NCBI GenBank assembly: GCA_036274695.1
Contig: DASUFF010000173.1
Coordinates: 105-64,104, forward strand
Length of the DNA stretch: 64,000 nt
Source of the DNA: a bacterium
GTDB taxonomy: Bacteria > UBA10199 > JACPAL01 > GCA-016699445
Direction: 5' to 3'
A program made the position numbers and the translations under genes. Every line of letters begins with the position of its first letter. Position 1 is the stretch's first letter. The notes under the pieces were generated by a model that saw only the letters and a program-made list of their open reading frames with translations, had not been told where the DNA came from and ran no database searches. Shown piece by piece: positions 5,191-57,265 of this stretch.

Positions 5191-5913
5191 TTAGATCTTA
5201 CCAGGGGCGCGGCGCTTTTGCAGGTCTTTCAGCGAAACGGCCGGCTTGTCGGCCGGAGGTTGAATGGGCGTTTCCTTCGCAGGCTGGGATTTCGCGAGGT
5301 CCGCCAAACGGCTGGTGAAGATCTGTTGGGCCGTCTGCCCCGCCTTGAAGCCGCTCTTTTGCAACTGCTCCTGGCTCGCCTTGCGGGAACCCTTTTTCTG
5401 TCTCATGAGGCCGTAAACGGAGACCTCGAGGACGCGCATGGGGGAGGGATACTGATTGATGATCTGCAGGATGAATTCCTTGGCCCCCTTGTCGATGCGG
5501 GCCTTGCCGTTCACCAGCCGGCCCTGGGCCTTCAGATTGTTGACGTAGACCTGGGCATAGCTGGGATCGAGAACGGTGCAGGGAATGATCTTATTGGCGA
5601 TGATTTCGCCGATTTCCTTCTCGCTGTATTCCCGCTCCTCGAGGGACATCGGGTCCCAGGGCGGCCGGATCGGCCCGTTGTAGTGGAACTTCTTCTTCTC
5701 CATCCACTGGGCGTGGGGAACGATGTAGGTGCCGTCGGCCTGCTTGCACGGCTCGAAGGAATCCACCCATTCCTTATACGTGTATTTTTTTGCGTCGACG
5801 AATCCCGAGGCGTAAAGGAAGGCGATGTCAATCTGATCCTTGAAGAAAATATACTTCTTCCGGTCTTTTCCTTCTTTCGCGACCCGGATGAAGATCGCTT
5901 CTAGAGGCTCCAT
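5191..5913 (-). CDS. uncharacterised protein, paralog family P copy 1
   Basis: 240 aa. Shares with 11283-11948, 14824-15468 and 15847-16497 the motifs GFVD, W..F...PDGSY/ADGTY, QW..K..F.Y.GP, YPSP.RV and a low-complexity Lys/Ala/Gln C-tail. Confidence 0.6.
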   Translation of the reverse strand: MEPLEAIFIRVAKEGKDRKKYIFFKDQIDIAFLYASGFVDAKKYTYKEWVDSFEPCKQADGTYIVPHAQWMEKKKFHYNGPIRPPWDPMSLEEREYSEKEIGEIIANKIIPCTVLDPSYAQVYVNNLKAQGRLVNGKARIDKGAKEFILQIINQYPSPMRVLEVSVYGLMRQKKGSRKASQEQLQKSGFKAGQTAQQIFTSRLADLAKSQPAKETPIQPPADKPAVSLKDLQKRRAPGKI

Positions 5914-6026
5914 TCACCCTCTCGGTTAGGCTAATTCTCTGAATTTACTTGCTTTTATTGTACTTGGGTTGAGCTATCTTGTCAAAAGGAAAGGGGATGA
6001 GGGGAATCGCCGGGTGGGGACGGGGA

Positions 6027-6353
6027 TTACGTCAGGAAATCGGTCGTTTCGACCGTATTGGAATCGCCTTTTTCGATCTCGGCCATCTTCTCTTCGTGGC
6101 GATCCGTTTCGGCCAAGCGGTCGTTCTTGTAATTGAGCCGGGCCTCGTCCTTGCGCTCGTCCAGTCTCTCCAGACCAAGCTCCAAGTTGGCGGCCGTGAT
6201 CTCGGAGCGGTTCATCGAGGATTCCATGATCCCAAAGGTCTGAACGCCCTGGGCGCCCAACGCCGTGATCATATTGTTGCTCGACGTCATTCCCAGCGCG
6301 GCCGTGTAATCGACCGGCGCGGGCATCGAAGCTGATGTTGTGGAACCGCCCAT
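6027..6353 (-). CDS. small uncharacterised protein, paralog family S copy 1
   Basis: 108 aa, N-terminus MGGSTTS..PAPVDY, conserved RHEEKMAEI and C-terminal TDF. 95% identical to the adjacent copy. Confidence 0.6.
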   Translation of the reverse strand: MGGSTTSASMPAPVDYTAALGMTSSNNMITALGAQGVQTFGIMESSMNRSEITAANLELGLERLDERKDEARLNYKNDRLAETDRHEEKMAEIEKGDSNTVETTDFLT

Positions 6354-6366
6354 AACCTTCTCCGTG

Positions 6367-6693
6367 TTACGCTATGAAATCCGTCGTCTCAACCGTGCTC
6401 GAATCGCCCTTTTCGATCGAGGCCATCTTCTCATCGTGGCGATCCATCTCGGCCAAGCGGTCGTTCTTGTAATTGAGCCGGGCCTCGTCCGCGCGCTCGT
6501 CCAGTCTCTCCAGACCAAGCTCCAAGTTGGCGGCCGTGATCTCGGAGCGGTTCATCGAGGATTCCATGATCCCGAAGGTCTGAACGCCCTGGGCGCCCAA
6601 CGCCGTGATCATATTGTTGCTCGACGTCATTCCCAGCGCGGCCGTGTAATCGACCGGCGCGGGCATCGAATTGGATGTGGTTGAACCGCCCAT
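6367..6693 (-). CDS. small uncharacterised protein, paralog family S copy 2
   Basis: Tandem near-identical duplicate of 6027-6353, 13-nt spacer. Confidence 0.6.
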   Translation of the reverse strand: MGGSTTSNSMPAPVDYTAALGMTSSNNMITALGAQGVQTFGIMESSMNRSEITAANLELGLERLDERADEARLNYKNDRLAEMDRHDEKMASIEKGDSSTVETTDFIA

Positions 6694-6720: not shown

Positions 6721-7305
6721 TTACGGTCCGTAATAGCCGTTTTCGTACTTGGCCTTATCGGCCTCCGCCTTCGCCTTATCCGCATCCGCTTTTGCCTTAT
6801 CCGCATCCGCTTGCTTCTGGAACGTGTCCTGCCAATTCTGGTGCTGCTGCGAGTCCTTGTTCATCAAGTCGTCCCACTGCTTGCTAAAATCGGGACGGCT
6901 GCCATCCGCATACTCGGTCGCGTTGTTCCAGATCGCTCCGGGAGAATAGCTCCCGGAGCTATTCGCTAAAAAATCGGATACCTCAGTCGTCGTCGTGCCC
7001 TCGCGAGCCGCATCCACGTCGGCTCCGATCTCGGCCATCTTCTCCTCGTGGCGGTTTTCTTCTTCGCTCATCGACTGGATATAGTTCAGCTTGGCGATCT
7101 GCAGCTTCGTATCCAGCGATTCCAGGCCTTGCTCCAGATTGGCCGCGATCTGCATTTCGCGGTCCATACTGGCGGTCATGACGGCGAAGTTCTGGGCCAT
7201 GATCTGGCCCATGGCGATGGTCTTGTTGTTGTCCGACTGATACATCATCGCCTGCGAGTAATCGACCGGAGGCGGGTATGTCGTCGTACTGGTTGATCCA
7301 CCCAT
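6721..7305 (-). CDS. uncharacterised protein, paralog family S copy 3 with repeat-containing C-terminal extension
   Basis: N-terminal ~110 aa homologous to the S family (MGGSTSTTTYPPPVDY, NRHEEKMAEI). C-terminus carries KADADKAKAEADKAK heptad repeats. Confidence 0.6.
   Translation of the reverse strand: MGGSTSTTTYPPPVDYSQAMMYQSDNNKTIAMGQIMAQNFAVMTASMDREMQIAANLEQGLESLDTKLQIAKLNYIQSMSEEENRHEEKMAEIGADVDAAREGTTTTEVSDFLANSSGSYSPGAIWNNATEYADGSRPDFSKQWDDLMNKDSQQHQNWQDTFQKQADADKAKADADKAKAEADKAKYENGYYGP
6752..6814. repeat. 3 x 21-nt in-frame tandem repeat
   Basis: gccttatc(g/c)gc(c/a)tccgc(c/t)tt(c/t/g)(c/t) three times, encoding a DKAKA(D/E)A heptad. Confidence 0.7.
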
Positions 7306-7381
7306 AAAATCTTCGCTCCCCTTAAGCTAAGGTATCGTCAAACCCTTTGTTTCCAGTTGCTTCCAAACACCCGATGCGGCC

Positions 7382-7771
7382 TTAGGGGCCAGGCATCGAG
7401 AAACCGCCGTTGCTCGGGTCGTCGTTTCCGTTGTTCCCGAAAATATCGCCCATCACGTCCCAGCGACTCTCGTTCGAACCGCCGTCGCTGAACAGGATCT
7501 CGGAATCCATGTGTTCGGGAGGCGGGAGGCCTTCTGCGGTCGCTTCGGCGCGGCCGTTCACCGTCTGCTGCCATTCGAGCATATAGGAAAGGGCGTCCTC
7601 CGCTCCCTGGCCGGCCTCGTGCAGGGCCATCTGGGACATCATCGCGCCTTCGTTCTCGGCGCGCGCCTTCTCCATTTCCTGCTGCTGCATCTCCCAAAGC
7701 CGTTCGTAAGCCGCCATGACCTCGGCGTTATTGGCTGCGTTATGGGCATTGACGTCGTTCGTATCGGCCAT
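7382..7771 (-). CDS. hypothetical acidic protein
   Basis: 129-aa ORF on the locus strand. Weak RBS and no recognisable domain. Confidence 0.4.
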   Translation of the reverse strand: MADTNDVNAHNAANNAEVMAAYERLWEMQQQEMEKARAENEGAMMSQMALHEAGQGAEDALSYMLEWQQTVNGRAEATAEGLPPPEHMDSEILFSDGGSNESRWDVMGDIFGNNGNDDPSNGGFSMPGP

Positions 7772-7826
7772 AAGGAAACACTTATCCTTTCACTATTCTA
7801 AACCTATTATCGGACCGCCTCAAAGG

Positions 7827-8498
7827 CTAAGTTGCTAGGCCCCCCTCAACGGGCTTGACGTAGATCCTCTGCAACTTCCTTAGGGAAATCGGCCAAAACT
7901 CCTTCATCCGTTCCCAGCGCTCCTTCAAACCCTTCGGTTTGACGGGGCGCCAGCCCAGGGCCTGCATGCGGGCATCGGGGATCACCAGCGTGGCCGTTCT
8001 CTCCCGAACGCCCCCCATCCGGAGGGTTAAACGGTCGAAACTCTTCTGGAAAATGAAGATGGCTTCCCGGCGCAATTGGGGATCCACATCGGGGATCCGG
8101 ACCTTGGGAAGGATCATCAAGTTCAGCAAATGATTCTCTTTTTTGCCGAAGTGGAACATGGAGTGCCCGCCGGCGATCAGCCGCTTTTCTTCTTTCAGCA
8201 GGCTCGTCCCCAGGAATTCCCGCACCAGGCCGTCGTAAAAGAGCTTGGGCCGCAAAAAAGACTTCCAGTTCAGGTATTTGAACGGATCAAAGAGGGAATG
8301 GTTGAACTCGTAGTGGATCTTGCCCTGGTCATCCATGAAACCCGAGATCTGCATTTCTTCCGTCAGAGGCTGGATGGTCCACGGCATGTAGGTGGTAAAC
8401 AAGTCCTCGTCGCTGACCACATAGGCATCCACCAGGCCCAAATGGGTCCGCTTCACAACCCGAGGAAGCTTCATGTCTTGTTGGAATGCCACTGACAC
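7827..8498 (-). CDS. hypothetical protein
   Basis: 223-aa ORF with consistent GC3 bias. No recognisable family. Confidence 0.5.
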   Translation of the reverse strand: MSVAFQQDMKLPRVVKRTHLGLVDAYVVSDEDLFTTYMPWTIQPLTEEMQISGFMDDQGKIHYEFNHSLFDPFKYLNWKSFLRPKLFYDGLVREFLGTSLLKEEKRLIAGGHSMFHFGKKENHLLNLMILPKVRIPDVDPQLRREAIFIFQKSFDRLTLRMGGVRERTATLVIPDARMQALGWRPVKPKGLKERWERMKEFWPISLRKLQRIYVKPVEGGLAT

Positions 8499-8629: not shown

Positions 8630-9004
8630 CTATGCCGTAGTCCCATTGCGGGCGTTCTGGACTTGCTGACGAGGACCGGAAGGATCGGGGGGATTGTTGG
8701 GTTGTCCCGGCTGCGCTTGAGCGCCGGAAGGGGGGAGGTAACCCATCTGTTCCAAGTACTGCTGAATGGCGGGATCGCCTCCGGTGGCGGCAGGGTCCGA
8801 GGCCATGGCAAAAATGCCTTGGGCCATTTGTTCGCTTTCGGAGTCCACCTGCTGTTGAGCGCGCTGCCGGGCGTCGGCCGAAGCGGCATCCTGGGCCGCC
8901 TTGGAGGCCTTGGCCTTATTGGCTTCCGAAACGCCGATGGTCGTGGCCGTGCACGCGACGGTGACGGCGGCTCCAACGGCTGCTGCTGCTACGGCTCCAG
9001 ACAT
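8630..9004 (-). CDS. small putative secreted or lipoprotein
   Basis: Internal-Met start gives an Ala/Val-rich hydrophobic N-terminus ending VTVAC (lipobox-like), then a Gln/Ala/Pro-rich tail. Confidence 0.4.
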   Translation of the reverse strand: MSGAVAAAAVGAAVTVACTATTIGVSEANKAKASKAAQDAASADARQRAQQQVDSESEQMAQGIFAMASDPAATGGDPAIQQYLEQMGYLPPSGAQAQPGQPNNPPDPSGPRQQVQNARNGTTA

Positions 9005-9106
9005 AATTAAATAAACCTCAAAACTAACAAGAGGATACACACCCCTCTTTAAAGATTTTCGGCCGGAACCCTTCTCCAGTTGCCTTGCCGACTATCCAAA
9101 TAATAA

Positions 9107-10246
9107 TCAAAGGTTAACACTGTTCGAGAGACAGTCCAAGAGCCTATTCAAGTGGCTTTCAGTATGGCGGCTGGTCAGGGAGACTCGAAGGCGGCATTGA
9201 CCTTCTGGAACGATGGGGGGGCGGATTTCTTGGACGTAAAGGTTTGAGTCGATCAAATAAGTCCACTGCCGAAGGATTTCCTCCGAAGAACCCGTCATCA
9301 TCGTGAAGATAGGAGACGGCTCGCGAATCACCATGAGGCGCTTCTGAAGATAGTCGATATTGTTCCAAAGAGACCTGCGCCGCTCCGGTTCCCCGCGAAC
9401 GATTTTGATCCCCTCTAGAGCCGCCGCGGCCGAGGCGGGTGGAAGAGACGTCGAAAACAAAAACGTACGGGCGTAATTGATCAGATAATCCTTCAAAAGC
9501 GAGGAACCACAAACGAACGCGCCGTATGAGCCCAACGCTTTTCCGAAGGTTCCCATCGTGACGACGAAGGAAGGCAGGGGACGCGGAACGAGGCCTTCGC
9601 CCTCATCACCGAAAACGCCGACGGCGTGGCATTCATCCACATACACGGTGGCCCCGTAACGAACCGCGAGGGTGAAGATATCCTTCATCGGGCAAAGATC
9701 GCCACCCGTGTTGAAGACCGCCTCCGTCACGATCAAACGCCGCCCCGGTTCCGAACGGAAACGATCGAGAAGATCCTCCAGCTGATTCATATGGTTGTGC
9801 CGGAAGGGTTGGATGTTCGCCCGAGATAGCCTCACGCCGTCGAGTGAGGAAGGATGGCACCCCTCGTCGATAAAGATGATGTCGGAGGACGAGGCCAGCA
9901 CGGGAATGACCCCCAGATTCGCTTGATAACCCGAATTAAAGAGCAGGGCGGACTCGGCGCCTTTCCATTCCGCCACGGCGTCTTCGAGTTGCTCGTAAAC
10001 CGGAAGGTTGGCGGAAATGATCCGGGATGCGCAGCCGCCGGCCCCGTATTGCCGCATGGCCTTTGCGCCGGCTTCAATGAGGCGGGGATCTCCGGCGAGC
10101 CCCAAATAATTGTTGGTGCAGAAATTGACGACCCGATGCCCTCCCAGGACCATTTCCGGCTCCTGCGGCGTTTCCATGGGGATCAAAGACAAATGATGCC
10201 CTATCTCCTTCAACTCCAGAAGGCTGTCTTCCCAATGGTCTCTCAC
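9107..10246 (-). CDS. alpha-oxoamine synthase (class II aminotransferase, 8-amino-7-oxononanoate synthase / BioF-like)
   Basis: VNFCTNNYLGL, FNSGYQAN and the PLP-lysine block TMGTFGKALGSYGA. GTG start at 10246 overlaps the upstream stop as GTGA. The longer ORF extends to 10468. Confidence 0.75.
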   Translation of the reverse strand: MRDHWEDSLLELKEIGHHLSLIPMETPQEPEMVLGGHRVVNFCTNNYLGLAGDPRLIEAGAKAMRQYGAGGCASRIISANLPVYEQLEDAVAEWKGAESALLFNSGYQANLGVIPVLASSSDIIFIDEGCHPSSLDGVRLSRANIQPFRHNHMNQLEDLLDRFRSEPGRRLIVTEAVFNTGGDLCPMKDIFTLAVRYGATVYVDECHAVGVFGDEGEGLVPRPLPSFVVTMGTFGKALGSYGAFVCGSSLLKDYLINYARTFLFSTSLPPASAAAALEGIKIVRGEPERRRSLWNNIDYLQKRLMVIREPSPIFTMMTGSSEEILRQWTYLIDSNLYVQEIRPPIVPEGQCRLRVSLTSRHTESHLNRLLDCLSNSVNL

Positions 10247-11301
10247 GCGGATTTCCCTCCCAACCGTTCCTTGAGAAAGCGCGCATCTCCTCCGACCTCC
10301 TCCAGCGCGGCAATCAAATCCGATTCGCCGATTTCCACCATGCCGGACCTCTTCGAAAGCGCGCGAAGGTAATCCGGCAAAGACACCCCGGCTTCGCGGC
10401 AGACATTCAGAAAGAAGGAAATAGGGTGGACGTCGATTCCCAGGCTCGCGGGAAAATAATCCTGCCACGAGACCCCGCGCGTCTCCCGCGGGAGAAACTC
10501 CGCAAGGCGCTGGGACGCCATGGCGAGGACCTCCTCGTTCAACCCCGGCTTGAGCCCGAGGCGCACCAAGTGAGCCGCCAAAAGTTCTATCTGGGCGTTA
10601 CCCGCGCCTCGACCGGCACCGCACAGACTTCCGTCGGCCCAACGACATCCTATGCGAATCGCTTCCAACGTCGTGGCCAACGCGGTGCCTAAATGATCGT
10701 GCGCGTGGATGCCCAAGGGAATTGAAACCGCCGCCAGCGCCTCTTCGACGTACGGCCTTACCTCCCACGGACTCCATATTCCCCCCGAGTCCACAAGGTA
10801 GACGACATCCACGCCTTGCGATTGAAGCCATTTTGCCGCCTTCGCCGCCGTTCTCGGAGGGACGCGCGAAGTCCGTATCATTTGAAAAAAAACTTCGTAG
10901 CCCAGTTTCTTTGCGCCAGCGATGAGCTCCTCCGCATCTTCGTACGCATTCGCGTTCGTCCCCACTCGAATGAAATCGAGGTAAGGCCGCAACTCCTCCA
11001 GGTCCTTGGCGCTGGCGAAACGCGGAAGGGCGACCATGCCCAGACGGGCTTGCGTCACAGATTCCCGGGCGGCGCGCGCGTAGACGACATCCCGCTCGCC
11101 GGCCGCAAAGACGCCCTTGTCGCGGGCACCCACGCTCATCCCGTGGCCGACCTCCAAGTAGCTCACGCCGGCCGCGTCGAGCAGATGAGCGACGTCCCGG
11201 AAGAGATCCAACGGATAATTATGATCGAAGAGATAGGCCCCATCCCTCAATGTCACGTCCATCAGAACGGGGGATTCCATGATCACTTCCGTCCTTTCCA
11301 A
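10243..11301 (-). CDS. HMGL-like DRE-TIM aldolase (4-hydroxy-2-oxovalerate aldolase / DmpG-like)
   Basis: VTLRDG, LEVGHG, YLVDSGG, GIHAHDHLGTA and ADGSLCGAGRGAGNA align with the DmpG catalytic core. Start may be the Met at 11280. Confidence 0.75.
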   Translation of the reverse strand: MERTEVIMESPVLMDVTLRDGAYLFDHNYPLDLFRDVAHLLDAAGVSYLEVGHGMSVGARDKGVFAAGERDVVYARAARESVTQARLGMVALPRFASAKDLEELRPYLDFIRVGTNANAYEDAEELIAGAKKLGYEVFFQMIRTSRVPPRTAAKAAKWLQSQGVDVVYLVDSGGIWSPWEVRPYVEEALAAVSIPLGIHAHDHLGTALATTLEAIRIGCRWADGSLCGAGRGAGNAQIELLAAHLVRLGLKPGLNEEVLAMASQRLAEFLPRETRGVSWQDYFPASLGIDVHPISFFLNVCREAGVSLPDYLRALSKRSGMVEIGESDLIAALEEVGGDARFLKERLGGKSA

Positions 11302-11948
11302 AGCAGGTCGCTTAACTTGTCCGCGGTTTGGCGTTCCTTCGAAGGCCCCTGGCTGAATTTTGATTTGTCGGGAACGGTCGGGACGGCCTTCGTCCGTGCG
11401 GCAACCGGAGGAACTGCCGACGACTTTCTCGCCTCCGCCACGGACATCTCGCGGACGCGCCGGGGTGACGGGTAGGTGAGGAGCAACTGCTTCAAGCCGA
11501 ACTTGAACACCCGGTTGACTACGTACTTGCCGTCTTTGATCGCGGTGTCCTTGGTCTTTTCGATTGCCTTGCGAAAATGGTCTTCAGTCAACGTCGTGGC
11601 CGGCAGGATGCCTTCTTTGAGAAGTTTTTCGAAATCCTTCATCTCCCAAAGACCTTCTTGAAGCATCATGGGATCGAGGGGGAAACCTACCGGCCCCTCA
11701 TAGCGAAAGTGCTTCTTGGCCAACCACTGATCCTTGGTGACGCGGTAACTTCCGTCCGGCCGCCGCGAATCTTCGAAGGCGTTGATCCAATCGTCCTTGG
11801 AATGCTTGTCCGTATCGACGAATCCGGTAAGATAGAGATATTCGAGATCATAGCGATCCCGCCATATGATGTAGGAAATTCCGTCCGGAAGAATCGTGGC
11901 CGTCTCGTTCCAGACGGCGACCATGGGGTCGCTTTGACGGCTAACCAT
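11283..11948 (-). CDS. uncharacterised protein, paralog family P copy 2
   Basis: 221 aa with the family motifs (GFVD, PDGSY, QW, YEGP, YPSPRRV, LSDLL). Confidence 0.6.
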   Translation of the reverse strand: MVSRQSDPMVAVWNETATILPDGISYIIWRDRYDLEYLYLTGFVDTDKHSKDDWINAFEDSRRPDGSYRVTKDQWLAKKHFRYEGPVGFPLDPMMLQEGLWEMKDFEKLLKEGILPATTLTEDHFRKAIEKTKDTAIKDGKYVVNRVFKFGLKQLLLTYPSPRRVREMSVAEARKSSAVPPVAARTKAVPTVPDKSKFSQGPSKERQTADKLSDLLWKGRK

Positions 11949-12885: not shown

Positions 12886-13227
12886 TTAGAGGCTTCTCAT
12901 CATTTGAGCAACCCACGGCGGCGGTCCGGGCTGGCCGGCTTCCGACCGTTCTCTGGGACGCGCCGGAGGACCGCCGGCGGGATCGGTTTGAGAGGGATCC
13001 ATCTCAGCCTTCGCGATGCCGGCATAGAGATCGCCGCTCCCTCGGAGGACGGCCGCATAAATCTGCTGCTTGGCGCCGGGACTCATTCCTTCAGGGGCGG
13101 TCGCCGCAGGCGTAGGTGTCTCTGTAACCGGATCACCCGCAGGAACAGGCGCAGGCGCCGGTGCGGCAGCCGCATCGGCAGCTGGCGGAGGGGGCGGCGG
13201 CGCTGAAGAGACATCTCCGACGGCCAT
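12886..13227 (-). CDS. proline/alanine-rich hypothetical protein
   Basis: 113-aa ORF in frame and on the operon strand. Low complexity, so coding status uncertain. Confidence 0.3.
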   Translation of the reverse strand: MAVGDVSSAPPPPPPAADAAAAPAPAPVPAGDPVTETPTPAATAPEGMSPGAKQQIYAAVLRGSGDLYAGIAKAEMDPSQTDPAGGPPARPRERSEAGQPGPPPWVAQMMRSL

Positions 13228-13265: not shown

Positions 13266-13454
13266 TTACTTTACCGGAGGCGTGCCAGCGCGGAGTTGAT
13301 CGATAACCACGGCGGCCGTCGGATCCGGAGGAGGAGGATTTGCGGGTGCACCAGCAGCCGGCGCCGGTTGAGGCTGATGAGCGTCCGAAGCTAGCTTAGC
13401 TCCAGTCGTTGCCAATTGAGTACCGGCATTAATTAATGCGGGAGCCCATCCCAT
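13266..13454 (-). CDS. small hypothetical protein
   Basis: 62-aa ORF at the head of the minus-strand operon, facing an AT-rich divergent promoter region. Confidence 0.3.
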   Translation of the reverse strand: MGWAPALINAGTQLATTGAKLASDAHQPQPAPAAGAPANPPPPDPTAAVVIDQLRAGTPPVK

Positions 13455-13558
13455 AAATACACCCCTTGATAGTTTATTATCGTATTTTGCGCTCTTTCCG
13501 GTTTCCCCACCAGTTTTTATTTCCTACGTTCGAGAGATCAGGTAATAAAATCAAACAT

Positions 13559-14500
13559 ATGGCCGACCTCGTCTCTCAGATGTTTTCCGGCGATCGACTC
13601 GCACTTTCCCGATTGATTTCAATGGTCGAAGCCCGCTCGGGCGATCTGGTCTCCCTCATGTCCCAGGTCCAGACGCGCTGCGGCAAGGCCTATAAGATCG
13701 GCGTCACCGGCCCTCCGGGGGCCGGCAAGTCGACGTTGACCGACAAACTGATCGCCCACCTCCGCAAACAGGGAAAGACCGTGGGCGTCGTCGCCATCGA
13801 TCCTTCCAGCCCCTTCTCCGGCGGCGCCGTCCTGGGCGACCGCATCCGCATGCAGGACCACGCGGGCGATGAGGGCGTCTTCATCCGCAGCCTGGGAAGC
13901 CGGGGGAGCCTGGGCGGCATCTCGCGCGCCACGCGCGAGGTGGTGAAACTCTTCGATGCCTTCGGCATGGATCATGTGATCGTCGAAACGGTCGGCGTGG
14001 GGCAGACCGAGTTGGACATCATGGAGATCGTCGACACCACCGTCGTCATCCTCACGCCCGAGTCGGGCGACGCCATCCAGACGATGAAGGCCGGCATCTT
14101 GGAGATCGCCGACGTCTTTGTCGTCAACAAGTCCGACCGCGACGGGGCTCCGATGATGCAAGCGGAGCTCAAGGCCATGCTGGAACTGGGCGCGCACGGG
14201 CCCTCCGACTGGATGCCGCCGGCGCTGTTGGTGCAGGCCAACAAGGATCAGGGCGTACGCGAGCTTTTGAACGCCATCGAGGATCACCATGCCTTCCGGA
14301 GGCAAGCGCACCCCGACGCGGGCAAGAAGCGCAAGATCGCCTTGGAAGAAGTGAAGGAAATCGTCCTGGAAGAGACGGCCTTGCGCCTGGCCAAGATACT
14401 GCCGGATGAGGTCAAAGGGGAGATCAGCAATCCCTACGATGTGGCCTCCGGCTACGTAAACCTCATCGAAAAAGCCCTGCGGAAAAAACAAAACGGCTGA
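13559..14500 (+). CDS. meaB: G3E-family GTPase MeaB/ArgK (methylmalonyl-CoA mutase-associated GTPase-like)
   Basis: GPPGAGKST P-loop, the DPSSPFSGGA..GDR switch region and NKSD. Start at the internal Met 13559. Confidence 0.8.
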   Translation: MADLVSQMFSGDRLALSRLISMVEARSGDLVSLMSQVQTRCGKAYKIGVTGPPGAGKSTLTDKLIAHLRKQGKTVGVVAIDPSSPFSGGAVLGDRIRMQDHAGDEGVFIRSLGSRGSLGGISRATREVVKLFDAFGMDHVIVETVGVGQTELDIMEIVDTTVVILTPESGDAIQTMKAGILEIADVFVVNKSDRDGAPMMQAELKAMLELGAHGPSDWMPPALLVQANKDQGVRELLNAIEDHHAFRRQAHPDAGKKRKIALEEVKEIVLEETALRLAKILPDEVKGEISNPYDVASGYVNLIEKALRKKQNG

Positions 14501-14548
14501 AGCAGGTTTCCCCGCTCCAGCCGTTTCTTTAAAAACCGAAAACTCGAA

Positions 14549-14761
14549 TTAAGCGCGAACGCCGCGGTCGGCCGCCACGACGCCAGAAGCGCCCCGGGAC
14601 GAAGCCGACAACGAGAAGTTCGCCTGGAAATCTTTGCTGCTGGTGATGTCACGGAGAGCGCGGCTTCCCGTGAAGGGGCTCGATCCCTCGACGCGCGAGG
14701 CGCTGGAGGAAGTGACGGACCCGGCGGCGCGGACATTCGAGGTATTGATGGTGGTGCTCAT
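14549..14761 (-). CDS. small Ser/Thr/Gly-rich protein, partner of P copy 3
   Basis: 70 aa, GGGGA/AGGAG RBS upstream. Lies directly 3' of a P-family gene, like 15604-15789. Confidence 0.4.
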   Translation of the reverse strand: MSTTINTSNVRAAGSVTSSSASRVEGSSPFTGSRALRDITSSKDFQANFSLSASSRGASGVVAADRGVRA

Positions 14762-14823
14762 ATGTATTCCCCTTTACTCCTAATGTTATCGGGAGGAGGG
14801 GAGGTCTCGGTTGCTTCCCCGGA

Positions 14824-15468
14824 CTATTTTCCCCCCGAACGGTTCAGCAGATCGGAAAGCCTCTGCGCCGCCACCTGGCTTTGGGCCTGGCCGGTGGAGT
14901 ATCCAGACCCCTTCTGGCCGGACCGCTCGGCACGGGCCTCGGCCAAGCCTAAGGCGCGCACCTGGGCCGGGGAGGGGTACATATCGATCAGCTTCTTCAA
15001 GTCCTCTTTGACCGCCCGCGTTATCTTATACACCCCTCCGGAAAAGAACGACTCCCGGGCCTCGTCGAAGATCGAACGAAATTCCTTTTCGGTAAAATAG
15101 ACGGCGGGGAGGATGTGGAGCCTGATCAAGGTCTCCATCTCCTTTTCCTGCCATTCGCCTTCCTTGATCAGCAGGGCGTCGAACGGGCGTCCCACGGGCC
15201 CGCAATACCGGAACCGCGCCTTGTCCATCCATTGCTCTTCACTCAAGCGGTAACTGCCGTCGGGCTGAAGGGAGTCTTTAAAGGATTCCACCCAATCATG
15301 GACGGTATGCTTCGATTCGTCCACGAAGCCCGTGCAGAAGAGATAAACGAGATCGGTGCGGCTGACGAAGGTGAGATACTTTTTGCCGTCCGGCCCGGCT
15401 TGGGACACGGCGGCCCAGATGGCCTTGACGGCTTTTATCGCTGCATCACTCGGTTGGGATGGTGGCAC
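14824..15468 (-). CDS. uncharacterised protein, paralog family P copy 3
   Basis: 214 aa with family motifs, ending RLSDLLNRSGGK. Confidence 0.6.
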   Translation of the reverse strand: MPPSQPSDAAIKAVKAIWAAVSQAGPDGKKYLTFVSRTDLVYLFCTGFVDESKHTVHDWVESFKDSLQPDGSYRLSEEQWMDKARFRYCGPVGRPFDALLIKEGEWQEKEMETLIRLHILPAVYFTEKEFRSIFDEARESFFSGGVYKITRAVKEDLKKLIDMYPSPAQVRALGLAEARAERSGQKGSGYSTGQAQSQVAAQRLSDLLNRSGGK

Positions 15469-15603
15469 GTTGAAATCCTCGTTAATATGAAGGTCTGAAA
15501 CGTACCTTCAGGTATGGACCAAAATATAGCGTGATTTCAGCGCTTTGTAAACGACTAGCTTCCTCTACGAGCCGTAGCGAGCGCTGTCCCGCGGGAAGCG
15601 GGA

Positions 15604-15789
15604 CTAGCCTAACTGGGCCTGAAAGTTGGCCGCGGAGATCGGATGGGAGGAGGCCCCGCCGGCCGCGGGATTCGGCCCGCCGTGCACGCCCGCCCGTTCC
15701 TTGGCCGCATGCAGACCGCCCGCGACAACGGTCGATCCGCCATGCGTCGCGTGAACTCCCGAAGTGTGCGTACCGGTGACTTGGGCCAT
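15604..15789 (-). CDS. small His/Gly/Ala-rich protein, partner of P copy 4
   Basis: 61 aa. Strong SD (GGAGGT, 4-nt spacer, ATG). GC3-biased. Confidence 0.45.
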   Translation of the reverse strand: MAQVTGTHTSGVHATHGGSTVVAGGLHAAKERAGVHGGPNPAAGGASSHPISAANFQAQLG

Positions 15790-15846
15790 GGGACCTCCGA
15801 TGATTGGATTATCGGATTGTCGCCCTTTTCGAGTTTCTTGGAAAGC

Positions 15847-16497
15847 TCAGCGATCCCGTTTGGCGATCAACTGGCTCAAACGGTCCGCGACCTGGCGGCT
15901 GGCCGCCGGTCCTTGAGCGAAGCCGGACTGAGGAGAGGACGCGGGGGCGCCTTGTCCCGATTGAGCCGCCTTCAACTGGGCGACGCCCATTTGCAGCACG
16001 CGGCGCGGGGAGGAATAGGTGTTCACGAACGTCGTCCATTCCTGCTTGAGCTGCCGGGAGATGAGGTACTTGCCGTCCTTTTTGGGCAGCGTCTTTTTCA
16101 CCTCGCCGATGATCCGGCCCCATTCGTCCTTGGTGAAATAGACGCAGGGCTTGAGCTTCTCCCACACCAATCCTTCCAGATCCGCCTCGCTCCATTCGCC
16201 CTCGCGGATGGTCATCGGGTCATAGGGAGGAAGGATGGGCCCGGAATAGTGATAGGGGACCTTAGCCATCCACTGCTCTTCGGTCACCAGATAGGCCCCG
16301 TTCGGAAGCAACGAGTCTTGGAAGGCGTCGACCCATTGTTGGATCGTGTAGTGATCATCGTCCACGAAACCGGACCAGAAGTGGTATTCAAGGTCCTTGC
16401 GGTCCTTGATGACGATGTAGTTCCGGCCGTCGGCGCCCGGCTTGGCGATCTTGTCCCACATTTTTTGGAGGATCTGGCGGGATTTTTCCTCAGGCAC
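15847..16497 (-). CDS. uncharacterised protein, paralog family P copy 4
   Basis: 216 aa with family motifs. Confidence 0.6.
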   Translation of the reverse strand: MPEEKSRQILQKMWDKIAKPGADGRNYIVIKDRKDLEYHFWSGFVDDDHYTIQQWVDAFQDSLLPNGAYLVTEEQWMAKVPYHYSGPILPPYDPMTIREGEWSEADLEGLVWEKLKPCVYFTKDEWGRIIGEVKKTLPKKDGKYLISRQLKQEWTTFVNTYSSPRRVLQMGVAQLKAAQSGQGAPASSPQSGFAQGPAASRQVADRLSQLIAKRDR

Positions 16498-16602
16498 GAC
16501 CGCATGGTAACGGAGACGACGGGGACGGTCAATTTCTCAAATTCATTGGACGGGGCATCGGCGGTTATATATTAGGAGTCCGCTCGCGTTTTTCGCGGTA
16601 AC

Positions 16603-16677
16603 GGCAGCGTAGCTCAGTTGGTAGAGCAGGCGGTTCATACCCGCCGTGTCGGGGGTTCAAATCCCTCCGCTGCCACC
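16603..16677 (+). tRNA. tRNA-Met (anticodon CAT), elongator-type. tRNA-Ile2 (lysidine) not excluded.
   Basis: Cloverleaf by hand: acceptor GGCAGCG/CGCTGCC, D-arm GCTC-AGTTGGTA-GAGC, anticodon arm GGCGG-TTCATAC-CCGCC, T-arm GGGGG-TTCAAAT-CCCTC, discriminator A. Confidence 0.85.
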
Positions 16678-51921: not shown

Positions 51922-52204
51922 CCTTCACGTCTTCAACGAGGAGGCGAGCCTGAGAGCCGGCGGTGCGAACGAAAAAATCCAAGACGGACTCGGCGCGCTT
52001 TCCAGGGAATGAGGATTTAAAATTTAAAGTTTGAGGAGACCCGCTAAGTCCCAACCTCGCGATCATGGTGATTGCGGGGCGACTGCCCATCCCCCAGCGG
52101 GTCTCCTCTTTTCCGGTTGAAAAAGACGATGCAAAGTCTTCGATTTTCTTCTGGAAACTCGTTGCCTATACTGGTCGATAATAGAACCGAAGAAGGGCTT
52201 AACT

Positions 52205-53080
52205 ATGCGTTTGCGGTCGTTTTCATCTCTGAGCGTCCTCTTGGCGTTATCGCTCTTAGGCTCTTCCGTTCTTCTGACCGGCTGTCCGGCCGCCTTTGCG
52301 CCCACCAATCCTCTGGCCGCGAGCCGCGCGGATTCCAACGTAACTCCCGGCGGCGGGAATAATGAGGACTCCGGCGAGGCTCCGGCGTCCGTCGTCGATC
52401 CTTCCGGTCCTGCGGCGGACGGCGCGAATCCGGCCTCCGGCGGCCCGTTCGGGATTCCTTCCCAACAAGACGGCAAGGGCGGCGACATCGCCTCCAATGC
52501 GAACAGCGGTACGATCGCCGCGGCCGGCGACACGGCCGACGCGGGCAAAGAGAGGCTGACGATCACGTTCCGGAAGGTCCGCTACGGCCACAACCTGAAA
52601 GGCCAGCTGCCGGACCCTCCCGCCACGGGATTTCTCTCCGCCAACCCGCAAGGGCCGACCGATCTCCCGCTTTTGATCGGCTACCTCAGCGCCAACAGCC
52701 AGCTCCTGAAGGGTTATCCGGAAGGTTCGCAGATACGTTTGATCTTTTATCCGGAAGTCATCACCAAGCCGACGACTTATGTGGACGGCGGGCCGATGAA
52801 CGCCTTCAACGCCCCGGTCAAAGCCGCCGACGGACCGAATTTCCTCTTCAACGATCTCGACCTCGGCAAGGGAACGCTCGAAATCTATTCCTTCGAAGAC
52901 CCGATTTACGACGAGACGGGCAGCTACGCGATGGCGCACACCGCCGATTACCACGAGGGGGATTTGATTCCCTTCGCCGACCCGTCCCAGTTGACCGATT
53001 TCCTCAACGACACCCTGCACGTCCACCACGTCGGCACCTTCAAGGTGATCTACGGCTACGCGACCGGAAATCCGCACTAG
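52205..53080 (+). CDS. putative lipoprotein
   Basis: Signal peptide with LLTGC lipobox, Gly/Ala/Pro-rich linker, then a globular domain. Confidence 0.55.
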   Translation: MRLRSFSSLSVLLALSLLGSSVLLTGCPAAFAPTNPLAASRADSNVTPGGGNNEDSGEAPASVVDPSGPAADGANPASGGPFGIPSQQDGKGGDIASNANSGTIAAAGDTADAGKERLTITFRKVRYGHNLKGQLPDPPATGFLSANPQGPTDLPLLIGYLSANSQLLKGYPEGSQIRLIFYPEVITKPTTYVDGGPMNAFNAPVKAADGPNFLFNDLDLGKGTLEIYSFEDPIYDETGSYAMAHTADYHEGDLIPFADPSQLTDFLNDTLHVHHVGTFKVIYGYATGNPH

Positions 53081-53083
53081 AGA

Positions 53084-56000
53084 TTAACCCAGAGCCTTCT
53101 CGATCATCTCCTTGAGCGACGCCGCCCCCGGGTCGATGCCCGCCCGCTCCAGGCGGGCGTAGAGGCTCCGCCGCGAGATTCCCAAGGCCTTGGCCGCCTT
53201 GCCCTTGTGGTAGCACTGGTCGCGCAACGCCTTGAGCGTCTCCGTGACGATCGGAGGGAGAGAGTCTTTCGAAACCGCTACCGAAGCGGAACCGCCACTC
53301 CCCGAAAAAGAAGGGGACGAAGTCCCCCCCTCGAAGAGGGCCGGCTTGAACGACAGCGACGCCCGCGTGATCGTTCCTTTCTCCGCGAACAGGACGGCCG
53401 TCTCCAGGGTGTTCTGAAGTTCCCGAATATTACCCGGCCACGCATAGCCCATGAAGATCCGGAGGACACCGGGCTCGAGCTTCACCGGCGTCTTGCTCTC
53501 CCGTCCGCCGATCCTTTTCAAAAAATGCTCCGCCAGGAGCGGCAGGTCTTCCAGGCGTTCGCGCAGGGGAGGGAGCTTCACGGTGATGCCGTTCAAGCGG
53601 TAGAAGAGATCTTCGCGGAATTTTCCTTCGGCCACCAGCGCGCGCAGGTCCTTGTTGGAGGCCGAAACCACGCGGGCGTCCACGCGCACGGGCTCGGCGG
53701 CGCCGATGGGACGCACCTCGCCCTCTTGCAAGAAACGCAGGAGCTTGGCCTGGAGGTTCAGGCTCATGTCGGCGATCTCGTCCAAAAAGACCGTGCCGCC
53801 GTCGGCGTATTGGAGGAGGCCTTTCTTGTCGGAGACGGCGTGCGTGAAGGCGCCTTTCTTATGGCCGAAGAGCTCGCTTTCCAAGAGGGACTCGGGCAAA
53901 GCGCTGCAATTCTCGGTGACGAAGGCCTTCTTCGAGCGGCCGCTGTTGAAGTGCAGGGCGCGCGCGATGGCCTCCTTGCCGGTGCCGGATTCGCCGTAGA
54001 TCCAGACGGGGATCTTGGCGTCGGTGATGCGGTCGACGACGGAGAGGACCTCCACCATCTTGGGCGAGCGCCCGACGATGTCGCCGTATTCCTTCTTCAA
54101 GATCATCCGCGTGCGGTTGACCTCTTTCTGGAGGTTCTGCACCTCGCCTTCCTGTTCGCCGATCTTGACCTCCATCTCGGTGTTCCGTTTTTTAAGCCCC
54201 TCGATCATCTTCGCCTTTTGAAGCGCGAGGGCCGCGATCCCGGCGAAGGCCTTCAGCACGTCCAAAATCTCGCCCTCGAAGAGGCCCTTTTGGAAACGGT
54301 GGTCGAGATAGAAGACCCCCAGGACGCCATCCGGACCGGTGACCGGCAGGGCCAGGATGGATTTGAGCTGGAGGAGCTGGACGCTCTTGGCCTCGCGAAA
54401 GGCCGGATCGATCATCGCGTTGTCGGTGACGACGGCGTCTCCCGTCTGCAGGGCGCGGCGCACCGCGGAAAGGCTGAAGCTGTAGAGATCCGTGCCGAGG
54501 TCCTCCTTCGCGACGTTCCTCGCCACCGCGATGTCGAATCCCGGAATGGGGCCGTTCGGAACGTCGCTGCGGAGGACCAAAAATCCGTTCTCGGCCCCCG
54601 CGATCCTCATCGCCGAGTCCATCAGGCGCTCCAGCACGCGCTGCATGTCGTCCTCTTTCAGGAGGGATTGATTGAGTTCCATCAGAATGGGCAGGACCTG
54701 GGTCATGGGACTGTCTCCTTTCGGTTTTTTCTCGGCGGGAACGGCCGATCGGTTTTTCCAATCCCCGCGTTCCACGAACGTCACCTGGAATTCGGTCGGC
54801 AACGACTCGTAGATCCGTTGGAGGACGTCGGCGGGGAGGGCGTCGGTCCCGTCGCGCAGGGCCGCGAGCCTCTTGGACGTTTCGGCGGCGAGAGCGCGGC
54901 CGTTGGGCCCCGCGGCTTCCATCTCCTTCAAGGCCTCCGCGGCCTTGGCGAAGCGTCCGAGCGAGGCCTCCGTCACCGCCAGCTCCTTCCGGTTCTGGAT
55001 CCATTCCTCGATCCCGCCGATGAAACGCAGGACGTCCCCCGCGCGCCGGAGCGATTCCCAGGACGCGGCCAGATGGCCACGGGCTCGCTCGAGCACGCCC
55101 TGGTTGTTGTGGGCGACGGCCTGGCGCAGGTCCGAGCCCGCTTCGCGCGCGAAGCCTTCCGCCGCCGCGTAGGCCGACGCCGCCGGTTCGATCTTTCCGT
55201 GATCGAGGGCGAGGTTGCCCTCCTCGAGGGACGTCCAAAAAAGCCCTTCCAAATGATGCTCGGAGGCGTAAAGCGCCCGCGCTTCGCCGAGCAGCCGGCG
55301 GGCCGCCTCCCAATCGCCGCCCCGCGAGCGGAGGGTGGCCAGGGTTCTCAAGGCCTCGGCCTTGAGCGCCGGAGCGGCGTCCGAGACCCCGATCTTTTCC
55401 AGACAGGCGACGGCCTCGGGCAGGCGCCCGCGCCGGAGCTCTTCGAGTCCGAGCAGCGAGAGGGCCTTCAGGCGGAAGGGACGCGTGCCGCGCTCGTCCG
55501 GCAAGCCGACGCCGGTCTTGAGCCTCTCGATGGCCTCGTCGCTTCTTCCCAAGTTCTGGCAGGCCTGGCCGGTCACCAGCCAGTACTTGGCGGTGCGCAC
55601 GGCGTCCGTTTCATCGCCGGCGCGAAGGTGAAACCAGTCCTCGCAGGAGGTCAACGCTTCTTCACGGCGTCCGAGGTCGTTCAAGAGGTTGGTCCTCATT
55701 CTTAAGAGGCGCGATTTTTCGTCGGGCTTCGAAACGAGGGGCAGGACGCGCTCGACCAAGGCCAGCGCCGGGGCGTAGCGGCGCCGGCGGCGGAGGTCTT
55801 CGGCGATCTCGCGCGCCTCGGGACCGGCGGCGTCGGCGTCGCCCGATGCGACGGCCCGAATCAGAGAGGGCGGGACGAAGCGATCGTCCAAGGGCCTCTC
55901 GCGCGAGGCCTGGTCCCTCAAGAAACTCCTCCACTCGCCGGCCAGACGGCCCTCGCGCACCAGTTTTTTTTGGGCGAGGAAGCGGATGCGCTCCACGAGC

Positions 56001-57265
56001 CGCGCCGGATTTCCCGCCGTATCCTCGAAGAGAGTCGCCGCCGCCTCGGCCGCGGCCCGGGGGCCGAAGGCGAGGGCGATCAGCGATTCGGTCTCGGCCC
56101 CGTCCAGATCCCTCAAGGCGACGTCGATCGTTTCCGGATTTTTCAGCAGCTCGCGGACGAGGCGGGCGAAGGGTTCCGGCTGGGCGTCATCGCTCCACGT
56201 CACGAGGACCAAGCCCGGCTTGGGTTCGCGAAGGCGGTGATAGAGGCGGGAGAGCTCGTCGGGGGCGAGGAACTCCGCGCCGTCGAAGACCTCCACCGGG
56301 ACATCGCGAAGCCGGCCTTCCAAAGACACCTCGCGCGCGAACCGCGATTTGCCGCTGCCGGAGGGACCGTGAACGGCCAGGAGGAGCGGCGACGACGAGG
56401 CGGCTGCGCGGGAAAGTGCGTCCTGGATTTTCTTCCAGGCGTCCTCGGCGCCGATCATGCGCGCCGGATGGAACTCCGAGAGGGCGGCGGCCCCGTCGGA
56501 ACGCCCGGTCTGCAGGGCGTTCCGGATTTCGCGGGCGCCCGAAAAGCGCTCGGAAGGGGAGACGGCCAGCATCCGTTCGATCACCCGCGCCGCGAGCGGA
56601 TGAGCGGCGGCGAACGCGGGGGCGGATTCGAGGAAAGGATCGGCCGGCCGTTCGAGGAAATCCCGCAGGCTCCGGCACCCGAGACGCGGATGCCGCCCGG
56701 CCAGCGCTTCGTAGAAAACGGTGGCGTACGAAAACAGGTCGCCCGAGGGCAGGCGATGCCCGTCGATCCGCTCCGGCGCCATGTAGGGGAGGGTGGCCAT
56801 CTCCAGGCGGGCCTCGTCGCCGAAGCCGATGGAGAGGTCCACGAGGCGCAGCCGTCCCTCGCGGTCGATCAAAAGATTGGAGGGGGAGAGATCGCCGTGG
56901 AGGAGGCCCTGCGTGTGGAGGGCGTCCAGCGCGTCCAGGCCTTCGAGGAACCAGTGGAGGATTTTTTCCGCGCCGGCGCCGCGCGCGGCGTTCAGGATCC
57001 CGTCCCCGTCCACGAACTCCATCCAGTAGGCGGGGCCGCGGTCGTCTCCGAAAATCTCGCGGCTGTCGGTGGCGAACCCCAGGACCGGCACCAACGAGGG
57101 ATTTTGAAGACGGGTCAGGACGCGCACTTCATGCGCGAAGACGGCGGACGAACGCCCCTTGGGCAGGAGCTTCAAGGCGACACGCCGGCCTTCCGGAGAG
57201 ATCGCATCGAAGACCTCGCCCATGCCGCCGGAGGTCAAAGCCGTCAGGGATGTCCAGGCACACAC
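53084..57265 (-). CDS. multidomain regulator: Ser/Thr protein kinase, P-loop (STAND-like) NTPase, TPR repeats, GAF, sigma-54 interaction AAA+ domain, Fis-type HTH
   Basis: Kinase HGDLSPSNLL..DLS(DFG-like). GPSGSGKS P-loop. Long TPR region. GAF domain. GESGTGKE/GAFTHA/ESELFGH sigma-54 activator motifs. C-terminal AKALGISRRSLYARL. Confidence 0.8.
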   Translation of the reverse strand: MCAWTSLTALTSGGMGEVFDAISPEGRRVALKLLPKGRSSAVFAHEVRVLTRLQNPSLVPVLGFATDSREIFGDDRGPAYWMEFVDGDGILNAARGAGAEKILHWFLEGLDALDALHTQGLLHGDLSPSNLLIDREGRLRLVDLSIGFGDEARLEMATLPYMAPERIDGHRLPSGDLFSYATVFYEALAGRHPRLGCRSLRDFLERPADPFLESAPAFAAAHPLAARVIERMLAVSPSERFSGAREIRNALQTGRSDGAAALSEFHPARMIGAEDAWKKIQDALSRAAASSSPLLLAVHGPSGSGKSRFAREVSLEGRLRDVPVEVFDGAEFLAPDELSRLYHRLREPKPGLVLVTWSDDAQPEPFARLVRELLKNPETIDVALRDLDGAETESLIALAFGPRAAAEAAATLFEDTAGNPARLVERIRFLAQKKLVREGRLAGEWRSFLRDQASRERPLDDRFVPPSLIRAVASGDADAAGPEAREIAEDLRRRRRYAPALALVERVLPLVSKPDEKSRLLRMRTNLLNDLGRREEALTSCEDWFHLRAGDETDAVRTAKYWLVTGQACQNLGRSDEAIERLKTGVGLPDERGTRPFRLKALSLLGLEELRRGRLPEAVACLEKIGVSDAAPALKAEALRTLATLRSRGGDWEAARRLLGEARALYASEHHLEGLFWTSLEEGNLALDHGKIEPAASAYAAAEGFAREAGSDLRQAVAHNNQGVLERARGHLAASWESLRRAGDVLRFIGGIEEWIQNRKELAVTEASLGRFAKAAEALKEMEAAGPNGRALAAETSKRLAALRDGTDALPADVLQRIYESLPTEFQVTFVERGDWKNRSAVPAEKKPKGDSPMTQVLPILMELNQSLLKEDDMQRVLERLMDSAMRIAGAENGFLVLRSDVPNGPIPGFDIAVARNVAKEDLGTDLYSFSLSAVRRALQTGDAVVTDNAMIDPAFREAKSVQLLQLKSILALPVTGPDGVLGVFYLDHRFQKGLFEGEILDVLKAFAGIAALALQKAKMIEGLKKRNTEMEVKIGEQEGEVQNLQKEVNRTRMILKKEYGDIVGRSPKMVEVLSVVDRITDAKIPVWIYGESGTGKEAIARALHFNSGRSKKAFVTENCSALPESLLESELFGHKKGAFTHAVSDKKGLLQYADGGTVFLDEIADMSLNLQAKLLRFLQEGEVRPIGAAEPVRVDARVVSASNKDLRALVAEGKFREDLFYRLNGITVKLPPLRERLEDLPLLAEHFLKRIGGRESKTPVKLEPGVLRIFMGYAWPGNIRELQNTLETAVLFAEKGTITRASLSFKPALFEGGTSSPSFSGSGGSASVAVSKDSLPPIVTETLKALRDQCYHKGKAAKALGISRRSLYARLERAGIDPGAASLKEMIEKALG

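Follow-up and report, generated by a model that had tools for sequence, protein, structure and literature searches.

Two pairs of an orphan P-family gene and a small Ser/Thr-rich gene form a conserved module with a putative alternative-sigma promoter motif

We analysed a 64,000-nucleotide stretch of bacterial DNA (hereafter the window; contig DASUFF010000173.1, positions 105 to 64,104), in which two genes of an orphan protein family, named P here, are each followed directly by a short gene for a protein rich in Ser, Thr, Gly and Ala. Judged by gene order and sequence comparison across related genomes, the P gene and its small neighbour (S) form a genuine conserved module. We also find in each P-S spacer a conserved alternative-sigma promoter-like motif, overlooked by an earlier preliminary description of this DNA, which putatively serves the small gene. 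We give even chances to a reading in which the S genes belong to an alternative-sigma regulon and each S protein binds its cognate P, the two pairs being ancient copies of one lineage-specific P+S module.

Conservation of the P-S gene pairs

The two pairs consist of the following genes, all of which lie on the minus strand. Coordinates here and throughout follow the numbering of the window.

15847-16497, minus strand: P4, 216 aa, orphan P-family protein (GenBank VFX30_14215, hypothetical protein)
15604-15789, minus strand: s61 (S4), 61 aa, low-complexity small protein (GenBank VFX30_14210, hypothetical protein)
14824-15468, minus strand: P3, 214 aa, P-family paralog of P4
14549-14761, minus strand: s70 (S3), 70 aa (GenBank VFX30_14200, hypothetical protein)

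The spacer is 57 nt long between P4 and s61 and 62 nt long between P3 and s70. Both small genes have a Shine-Dalgarno-like site, GGAGG at 4 nt 5′ of the ATG for s61 and AAGGGGA at 6 nt 5′ of the ATG for s70. Ser, Thr, Gly and Ala together make up 56% of each small protein, Cys, Trp and Tyr are absent from both, and s61 has six His residues. The preliminary description had the positions, the strand and the spacing of these genes exactly right, and the Shine-Dalgarno sites and the S/T/G/A/H-rich composition that it reported are present.

Examining the relatives, which are metagenome-assembled genomes labelled Deltaproteobacteria, Myxococcota, Pseudomonadota or just 'bacterium', we find an S-type gene (57-78 aa, S/T/G/A-rich) directly 3′ of 16/16 P3/P4-clade genes with downstream DNA. 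These comprise eight genes of P4 type, four of P3 type, the tandem two in the related locus L006 and the single copies in L007 and L008. The P-plus-small-gene module that had been proposed from the window thus extends to loci with a single pair as well as to another tandem. No S-type gene was found after P1- or P2-type paralogs, neither in the related loci nor in the window. The synteny is also kept, running Der, tRNA-Met, P4, S, P3, S, with MeaB next on the opposite strand, followed by P2 and P1; the order Der, tRNA-Met, P4 is also found in L017 and L007. Adjacency and orientation of the pair survive a divergence of P down to about 45% identity and at least one duplication. In a neighbour-joining tree, P4 is supported at 98.5%, the core P3 group at 95% and the clade of all S-linked P genes at 50%. 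Genes of another family, with a PPVDY motif, stand directly 5′ of P1 in the window, L007, L012 and L015 and make up a second small-protein/P pairing.

Next to the window's genes we placed their orthologs from the nearest relative, the metagenome contig L020, whose P proteins are 87-88% identical to those of the window. Substitutions are given for codon positions 1/2/3, and dN/dS is the ratio of non-synonymous to synonymous substitution rates.

s61: protein identity 72%, gap-free; substitutions 14/13/31; dN/dS 0.216
s70: protein identity 66%, gaps all in-frame; substitutions 18/9/31; dN/dS 0.228
P4: protein identity 87%, gap-free; substitutions 28/6/78; dN/dS 0.068
P3: protein identity 88%, gap-free; substitutions 22/9/81; dN/dS 0.071

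The reading frame and the length of s61 and s70 are kept in the L020 orthologs, and the non-synonymous evolution of both is about threefold faster than that of P. Profile searches of 5.8 billion proteins recovered 11 clusters (90% identity) for each small protein at E values of 1e-10 to 1e-24, with VFX30_14210 and VFX30_14200 among their members. The codon-usage score was trained on the window's confident genes, for which in-frame windows have a mean of 0.37 and the out-of-frame 95th percentile is 0.13. With log-likelihood ratios per codon of 0.08 (s61) and 0.04 (s70), it is ambiguous for the small genes; the GC content at third codon positions in the annotated frame is high as is typical of the genome (0.74 and 0.79, respectively). 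Although the codon score alone is ambiguous, the comparative data (frame, length and dN/dS) lead us to regard s61 and s70 as genuine conserved genes.

We also considered that the small ORFs arose by chance in GC-rich spacers and that conservation concerns something non-coding, be it an RNA element or a promoter only. Codon scores of 0.08 and 0.04, set against the out-of-frame 95th percentile of 0.13, and the low-complexity composition would suit such an origin. We give it next to no credence, and for practical purposes the comparisons have already refuted it. The dN/dS is about 0.22, third positions carry 31 changes in each gene against 13-14 (s61) and 9-18 (s70) at the other positions, and gaps are only in-frame. 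Furthermore, an ORF of similar length with a start codon and a Shine-Dalgarno site is present at 16/16 loci, protein profiles recover the orthologs at the E values given above, and the sole match of an Rfam scan of the region is the tRNA-Met. The preliminary description had made its proposal depend on the conservation of the small ORFs in related genomes, and this conservation is what we observe.

Two further P-family genes of the window bear on the origin of the pairs.

11283-11948, minus strand: P2, P-family paralog with no S-type gene after it
5191-5913, minus strand: P1, P-family paralog, 240 aa

The mutual identity of P1-P4 is 30-40%, with 36% between P3 and P4, and no DNA-level repeat is detectable between the P4-s61 and P3-s70 pairs. 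The duplication is therefore ancient, and a recent DNA duplication was rejected on the missing repeat. Homology between s61 and s70 could not be demonstrated: hhalign gave an E value of 0.26 with small alignments, and with 11-sequence alignments a P value of 0.005 (probability 7%), for a match confined to the N-terminal 24 residues. The tandem duplication proposed earlier is thus retained for P at the protein level, but neither as a repeat in the DNA nor as a demonstrable relation of the two small proteins. In the same way, the FQAQ/FQAN motif pointed out near their C-termini occurs in the closest relatives of s61 and of s70 (as FQA[QN]), but it is not kept across the families. The most economical reading would be an ancient duplication of the P+S pair followed by rapid divergence of S.

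Promoter-like motifs of the small genes and of the P genes

Each P-S spacer contains the motif G[AC]AAC-N18-CGATAA, followed by the Shine-Dalgarno site and the ATG of the small gene. The sites of the window are listed below.

15809-15837, minus strand: motif of s61, GAAAC-N18-CGATAA, with a sigma-28-like −10 (CCGATAA), wholly within the 57-nt spacer
14786-14814, minus strand: motif of s70, GCAAC-N18-CGATAA, within the 62-nt P3-s70 spacer
13477-13505, minus strand: GAAAC-N18-CGATAA, 22 nt 5′ of a 62-aa Pro-rich ORF (13266-13454)
7807-7835, minus strand: motif 5′ of a 129-aa orphan ORF (7382-7771)
7332-7360, minus strand: CGATAC variant of the motif, 5′ of a 194-aa 'MGGST..PPVDY' ORF (6721-7305)

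Scores at the five sites range from 22 to 38 bits, whereas none of 20 shuffles exceeded 16 bits. All five belong to the minus strand of an island of about 11 kb (5.2-16.5 kb) that includes the P genes. The s61 site has the top position weight matrix score of the window (37.7). The motif is conserved 5′ of all eight s61 orthologs (with N17 in L017) and precedes 16/16 S genes, including those with spacers that are otherwise unalignable. Its −10 part, CGATAA, is found in 16/16 S upstream regions (once as CGATAC), and the longer form CCGATAA in 10/16. In the window and the related loci together (469 kb), we count 31 matches against 2.7 expected, 26/31 of them with an 18-nt spacer. Nearly all matches stand 15-35 nt (a few up to 68 nt) 5′ of the start of a small orphan gene, and the motif also precedes small orphan genes of the island other than S, in the window and in the relatives.

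Outside the island, a variant with a 17-nt spacer (GAAACTCG...TCGATAA) lies on the plus strand at 52154-52181, 23 nt 5′ of the ORF 52205-53080. This ORF codes for 291 aa with a lipoprotein-type signal peptide (…LLTGC), lacks any Pfam domain and may belong to the same regulon.

The −10 consensus of sigma-28 is GCCGATAA (PMC12784957), and the −10 part of the island motif matches it. In Bdellovibrio, the FliA promoter TTAAG-N16-CCGATA drives many uncharacterised attack-phase genes (PMC3627812). The island motif resembles FliA/sigma-28 promoters, those of Bdellovibrio included, in its bipartite build with a (C)CGATAA −10. The set of genes is also alike: small and mostly uncharacterised in the Bdellovibrio FliA regulon, and small orphan genes with putative promoters 15-35 nt before their starts in the island. 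These likenesses point to a promoter of an alternative sigma factor, putatively of a diverged FliA/sigma-28 type.

Several observations weigh against a sigma-28 assignment and against the wider reading built on it. The TAAA(G) element expected 15 nt before GCCGATAA is not found. In its place, the island has G[AC]AAC, like the 'AAC' of extracytoplasmic function (ECF)-type promoters rather than TAAA or the TTAAG of Bdellovibrio, and its spacer is 2 bp longer than that of E. coli and P. aeruginosa and 1 bp longer than that of Bdellovibrio. Because the −35 part and the spacing deviate from the FliA/sigma-28 consensuses, an ECF-type sigma factor could use the motif instead, and so could a DNA-binding regulator. 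The scanned ORFs of the window yielded no sigma factor gene, and the island promoters, unlike the known FliA/sigma-28 promoters, are predictions from sequence. Lastly, separate promoters of P and S weaken the argument from co-transcription; with a promoter-like motif of its own in the spacer, the S gene probably does not form a simple co-transcribed unit with P.

The predicted promoters of the P genes are of another type, as listed here together with a hairpin near P3.

16504-16532, minus strand: P4 sigma-70-like promoter, TTGACC-N17-TACCAT, the −10 ending 6 nt before the GTG start
15523-15551, minus strand: P3 sigma-70-like promoter, TTTACA-N17-TATATT, with 10/12 consensus matches
5957-5985, minus strand: P1 predicted sigma-70 promoter, TTGACA-N17-TACAAT, near-consensus
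15489-15511, minus strand: 7-bp hairpin inside the 54-nt 5′ leader of P3

The layout of the P4 promoter, AAATTGAC(C/G)-N17-TAnnAT at 6-8 nt 5′ of the start codon, recurs in L020, L001 and L023, and the P3 promoter is conserved in L020, L017, L001, L018, L019 and L005. In most P3/P4 relatives the start codon comes 6-9 nt after the −10 (6-7 nt in most of those with the P3 promoter), which implies leaderless P3/P4 mRNAs in most of them. The −10 of the window's P4 ends 6 nt before the GTG, so that the predicted P4 mRNA has little or no leader. An additional 54-nt 5′ leader with its own Shine-Dalgarno site, absent from most relatives, precedes the window's P3. The 7-bp hairpin, which had been described as separating the two cassettes, does exist, but it lies within this window-specific leader, downstream of the conserved sigma-70-like promoter. 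The leader that bears it folds no better than shuffled sequences (z = −0.73), and the hairpin is absent from L020, L001, L018, L019 and L005. Being unconserved and not unusually stable, it was rejected as a terminator or a regulator.

The P and S proteins and their possible partnership

The AlphaFold2 model of P4 (mean predicted local distance difference test, pLDDT, 83.7; predicted template modelling score, pTM, 0.71) has an alpha/beta domain at residues 1-180, then a disordered linker and, at the C-terminus, a helix. P3 and P4 belong to a rare orphan family and are globular, cytoplasmic and without a signal peptide. The family is defined by a length of about 200-260 aa, the motifs GFVD, W..F, QW..K, Y.GP...P.DP, EG.W and YPSP, and a C-terminal tail. 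An exhaustive profile search among 1.84 billion proteins yielded 125 clusters (50% identity) that fit this definition, as do 4/4 paralogs of the window; P4 has 11 close clusters. Paralogs of all four types retain the tail, [ST]G[FY]xxG(P)...A..[RK]L[SA]dL. The N-terminal part of P, by itself, also occurs in two signal-peptide proteins of 265-303 aa, which are without a Pfam domain.

Searching for relatives, we obtained no family assignment for P or S from Pfam, NCBIfam, PHROGs or PADLOC. Searches of the PDB sequences, whether with a single sequence or with profiles of 13 and 88 sequences, returned no match below an E value of 0.2, and the P4 model had no Foldseek match in the PDB and BFVD. A UBC/E2-like (UFC1) fold was considered and rejected: only P2 matches it, and below threshold (E 0.03, 14.5 bits against a cut-off of 25), the Ubc6 domain ranked 46th in Foldseek at an E value of 9.5, and P has no family-conserved Cys. 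An 895-aa candidate for a P fusion proved to be a repeat-driven false match to an amidase. P has no homolog in INPHARED, PLSDB or IMG/VR, which argues against an origin from a phage, plasmid, virus or other mobile element. A toxin-antitoxin or defence pair was likewise rejected, as PADLOC and Pfam gave no matches, no phage, plasmid or IMG/VR copy exists in the collections searched, and the chromosomal synteny is fixed.

The S proteins are of a different kind. The AlphaFold2 model of S3 has a mean pLDDT of 52 and a pTM of 0.14, with short helices at residues 33-40 and 43-46, and S3 is predicted to be disordered. The hydrophobic N-terminal segment typical of a signal peptide is absent from s61 and s70. 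All S proteins begin with a Ser/Thr-rich N-terminus of the form M-x-x-x-[VI]-[TN], and their conserved positions are spread over the N-terminus, the centre and the C-terminus. A derivation of S as a detached copy of the P tail was considered and rejected on hhalign E values of 0.57 and 0.97.

In the reading we favour, G[AC]AAC-N18-CGATAA would be the promoter of a diverged FliA/sigma-28-type (or ECF) alternative sigma factor, from which S3 and S4 would be expressed in step with the island's further small proteins, in a single regulon specific to a condition or life phase, and housekeeping-type promoters would supply the P proteins. The S protein of each pair would bind the neighbouring P as a cognate ligand, client or regulator, with the disordered S chain folding on the globular P domain. 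A common hub may then receive the pair through the conserved tail of P. Binding of S by P, with S as a cognate partner or substrate, is a plausible reading.

Would the pairs be kept for a reason other than binding? The S genes may simply be members of the island's small-protein regulon between which the P genes were interleaved historically, and S may act elsewhere as a structural, stress-protective or regulatory disordered protein that does not bind P. That S has its own promoter-like motif, different in type from the P promoter, fits such a history, and other motif-bearing genes (those of the 62-aa, 129-aa and 194-aa ORFs) are not beside a P3/P4-type gene. We nevertheless hold mere neighbourhood to be on the unlikely side. 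Adjacency and orientation are found in 16/16 cases despite P identities down to about 45%, at least one duplication and spacers diverged past alignment, and the PPVDY family with P1 provides a second conserved pairing.

The sigma-28-like −10 element also raises an export logic. In flagellar systems, each late substrate has a chaperone, and flgM carries a sigma-28 promoter, both of which are established knowledge. The S proteins could accordingly be secreted late substrates or FlgM-like anti-sigma factors expressed from sigma-28-type promoters, and the P proteins their cytoplasmic chaperones, whose conserved tail docks on an export gate. Like FlgM, the anti-sigma-28 factor, S3 is small and predicted to be intrinsically disordered (pLDDT 52, 56% S/T/G/A), S has a Ser/Thr-rich N-terminus, and a putative sigma-28-type promoter precedes the gene; the flgM gene can also be read through from an upstream gene, in which the S genes would resemble it. 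Flagellar and type III chaperone-substrate pairs offer further likenesses, since a globular cytoplasmic protein is encoded beside a small or disordered one, several paralogous pairs share a locus, and a conserved terminal motif such as the P tail could dock on a common machine.

The searches speak against this logic, which we consider improbable. Pfam, FlgM (PF04316) included, has no match for s61 and s70 at E values up to 1 or for 11 S3 orthologs at E values up to 5, and S is without the C-terminal helical sigma-binding region of FlgM. A genome has at least two S copies that look unrelated, and no flagellar context was seen. P, at about 215 aa and with an alpha/beta domain without a fold match, is unlike such chaperones, which are helical or alpha/beta proteins of 12-16 kDa, and neither its sequence nor its fold is related to FliS, FlgN, FliT or CesT-type chaperones. 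Genes of flagella, type III secretion or secretion ATPases were found neither among the scanned window ORFs nor in the gene tables of the related loci, and no secretion system genes were seen near the P/S pairs. The FlgM-like or chaperone-substrate logic is an attractive analogy that the sequence and fold searches do not bear out.

The preliminary description had also suggested that the small protein is a precursor peptide. S would then be a ribosomally synthesised and post-translationally modified peptide (RiPP), with P as the recognition or modifying enzyme. As in RiPP cassettes of precursor and tailoring enzyme, a short S/T/G-rich ORF comes right after a conserved uncharacterised protein, in tandem pairs, and genes for a TylF-like methyltransferase, an Asp/Asn beta-hydroxylase and metallo-beta-lactamase-fold proteins are found elsewhere in the island. 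However, the S proteins are without Cys and their conservation has no leader/core split. No YcaO, LanB/C/M, radical-SAM, RiPP recognition element (RRE), peptidase or ABC-exporter domain occurs in or beside the pairs, whose neighbours are Der, tRNA-Met and MeaB. The island enzymes are missing at the equivalent loci of L007 and L008, and across deep divergence the locus has kept its chromosomal place beside housekeeping genes. We regard a precursor role of S as very improbable.

The island, its surroundings and its meaning

On one side, the pairs are bounded by a terminator-type stem-loop at 14490-14527, with 17 pairs and then a T run, which separates s70 from MeaB, a convergent gene. Its sequence is retained in L020, and it is a strong predicted terminator that closes the P/S unit against MeaB. 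On the other side, the tRNA-Met (CAT) gene at 16603-16677 (plus strand) is divergent and lies 5′ of P4. A 310-aa ORF on the plus strand (15643-16575), antisense to P4, has a codon score of −0.08 and is a shadow ORF of the GC-rich coding strand, not a gene. Directly 3′ of the s61 stop, we noticed a 47-nt GC-rich double-hairpin element (15558-15604), present in one copy in the window. L001 has a copy identical at 45/47 positions (11597-11643) in the opposite orientation relative to the genes; the element sits in the S4-P3 spacer in the window, but in the P3-S3 spacer in L001. It looks like a small mobile insertion, resembling a repetitive extragenic palindromic (REP) element or a miniature inverted-repeat transposable element (MITE).

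The rest of the island holds further orphan genes on the minus strand. Three tandem paralogs (6027-6353, 6367-6693 and 6721-7305) start with MGGST... and have a PPVDY motif followed by a coiled-coil-like region; they have no significant match in Pfam, PHROGs or PADLOC. Their homologs 5′ of P1 in L007, L012 and L015 usually stand behind a G[AC]AAC-N18-CGATA motif. The ORFs 13266-13454, 12886-13227 and 8630-9040 share Ala/Gly/Thr-rich hydrophobic N-termini, followed by Pro-rich or Gln/Ala-rich tails, and have relatives in L001, L005, L007 and L008 (a MAWVAAV... protein after P2). With codon scores of −0.44, −0.24 and 0.03, respectively, they score poorly, so that 12886-13227 in particular is only a putative coding sequence.

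P2 lies in a run of genes for a TylF-like methyltransferase, P2, an HMGL-like enzyme and an aminotransferase, which is kept in L001 and absent from L007 and L008. The ORF of the aminotransferase (alpha-oxoamine-synthase-like; 9107-10468) overlaps the HMGL-like gene (10243-11301) by about 225 nt, both on the minus strand. Because its Pfam match begins at residue 113, the true start of the aminotransferase is probably further downstream. Away from the island, the minus-strand ORF 53084-57265 codes for a 1393-aa fusion of Ser/Thr protein kinase, AAA_16, GAF and sigma-54 activator domains, and a second sigma-54 enhancer-binding protein is encoded near it (62679-63977, minus strand). Kinase/sigma-54-activator fusions are typical of Myxococcota-like genomes.

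A bolder reading, which we regard as unlikely, takes the whole 11-kb island as an undescribed phase-specific programme or apparatus of an uncultured lineage labelled 'Deltaproteobacteria/Myxococcota'. It would include the four P paralogs, S3, S4, the PPVDY family and the small proteins rich in Pro or in Ala and Gly. Each P protein would act as the dedicated receptor or chaperone, of a new fold, for one small disordered protein. A diverged sigma-28-like factor would turn on the small proteins together, and the P tail common to the paralogs would deliver them to one machine.

In summary, two anonymous pairs of hypothetical proteins become a defined, testable unit. Its parts are a rare P family with a confident model and no detectable relatives, small proteins under purifying selection that always adjoin P3/P4-type genes, a promoter-like motif, sharply defined, by which they are connected with further small orphan genes, and P genes with housekeeping-type promoters that are predicted to be often leaderless. 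If neither the sigma-28 assignment nor the binding holds, the island would be an ordinary lineage-specific orphan cluster. Such clusters are common in uncultured lineages, but the P/S island differs from them by its clean regulon signature and the lack of detectable fold relatives. If the motif is a diverged sigma-28 promoter, it would provide a readout of a life-phase or stress regulon in a lineage seen only in metagenomes, a parallel to the attack phase of Bdellovibrio with its control by FliA. Should P bind S, the four P paralogs would represent a new class of specific receptors for disordered proteins.

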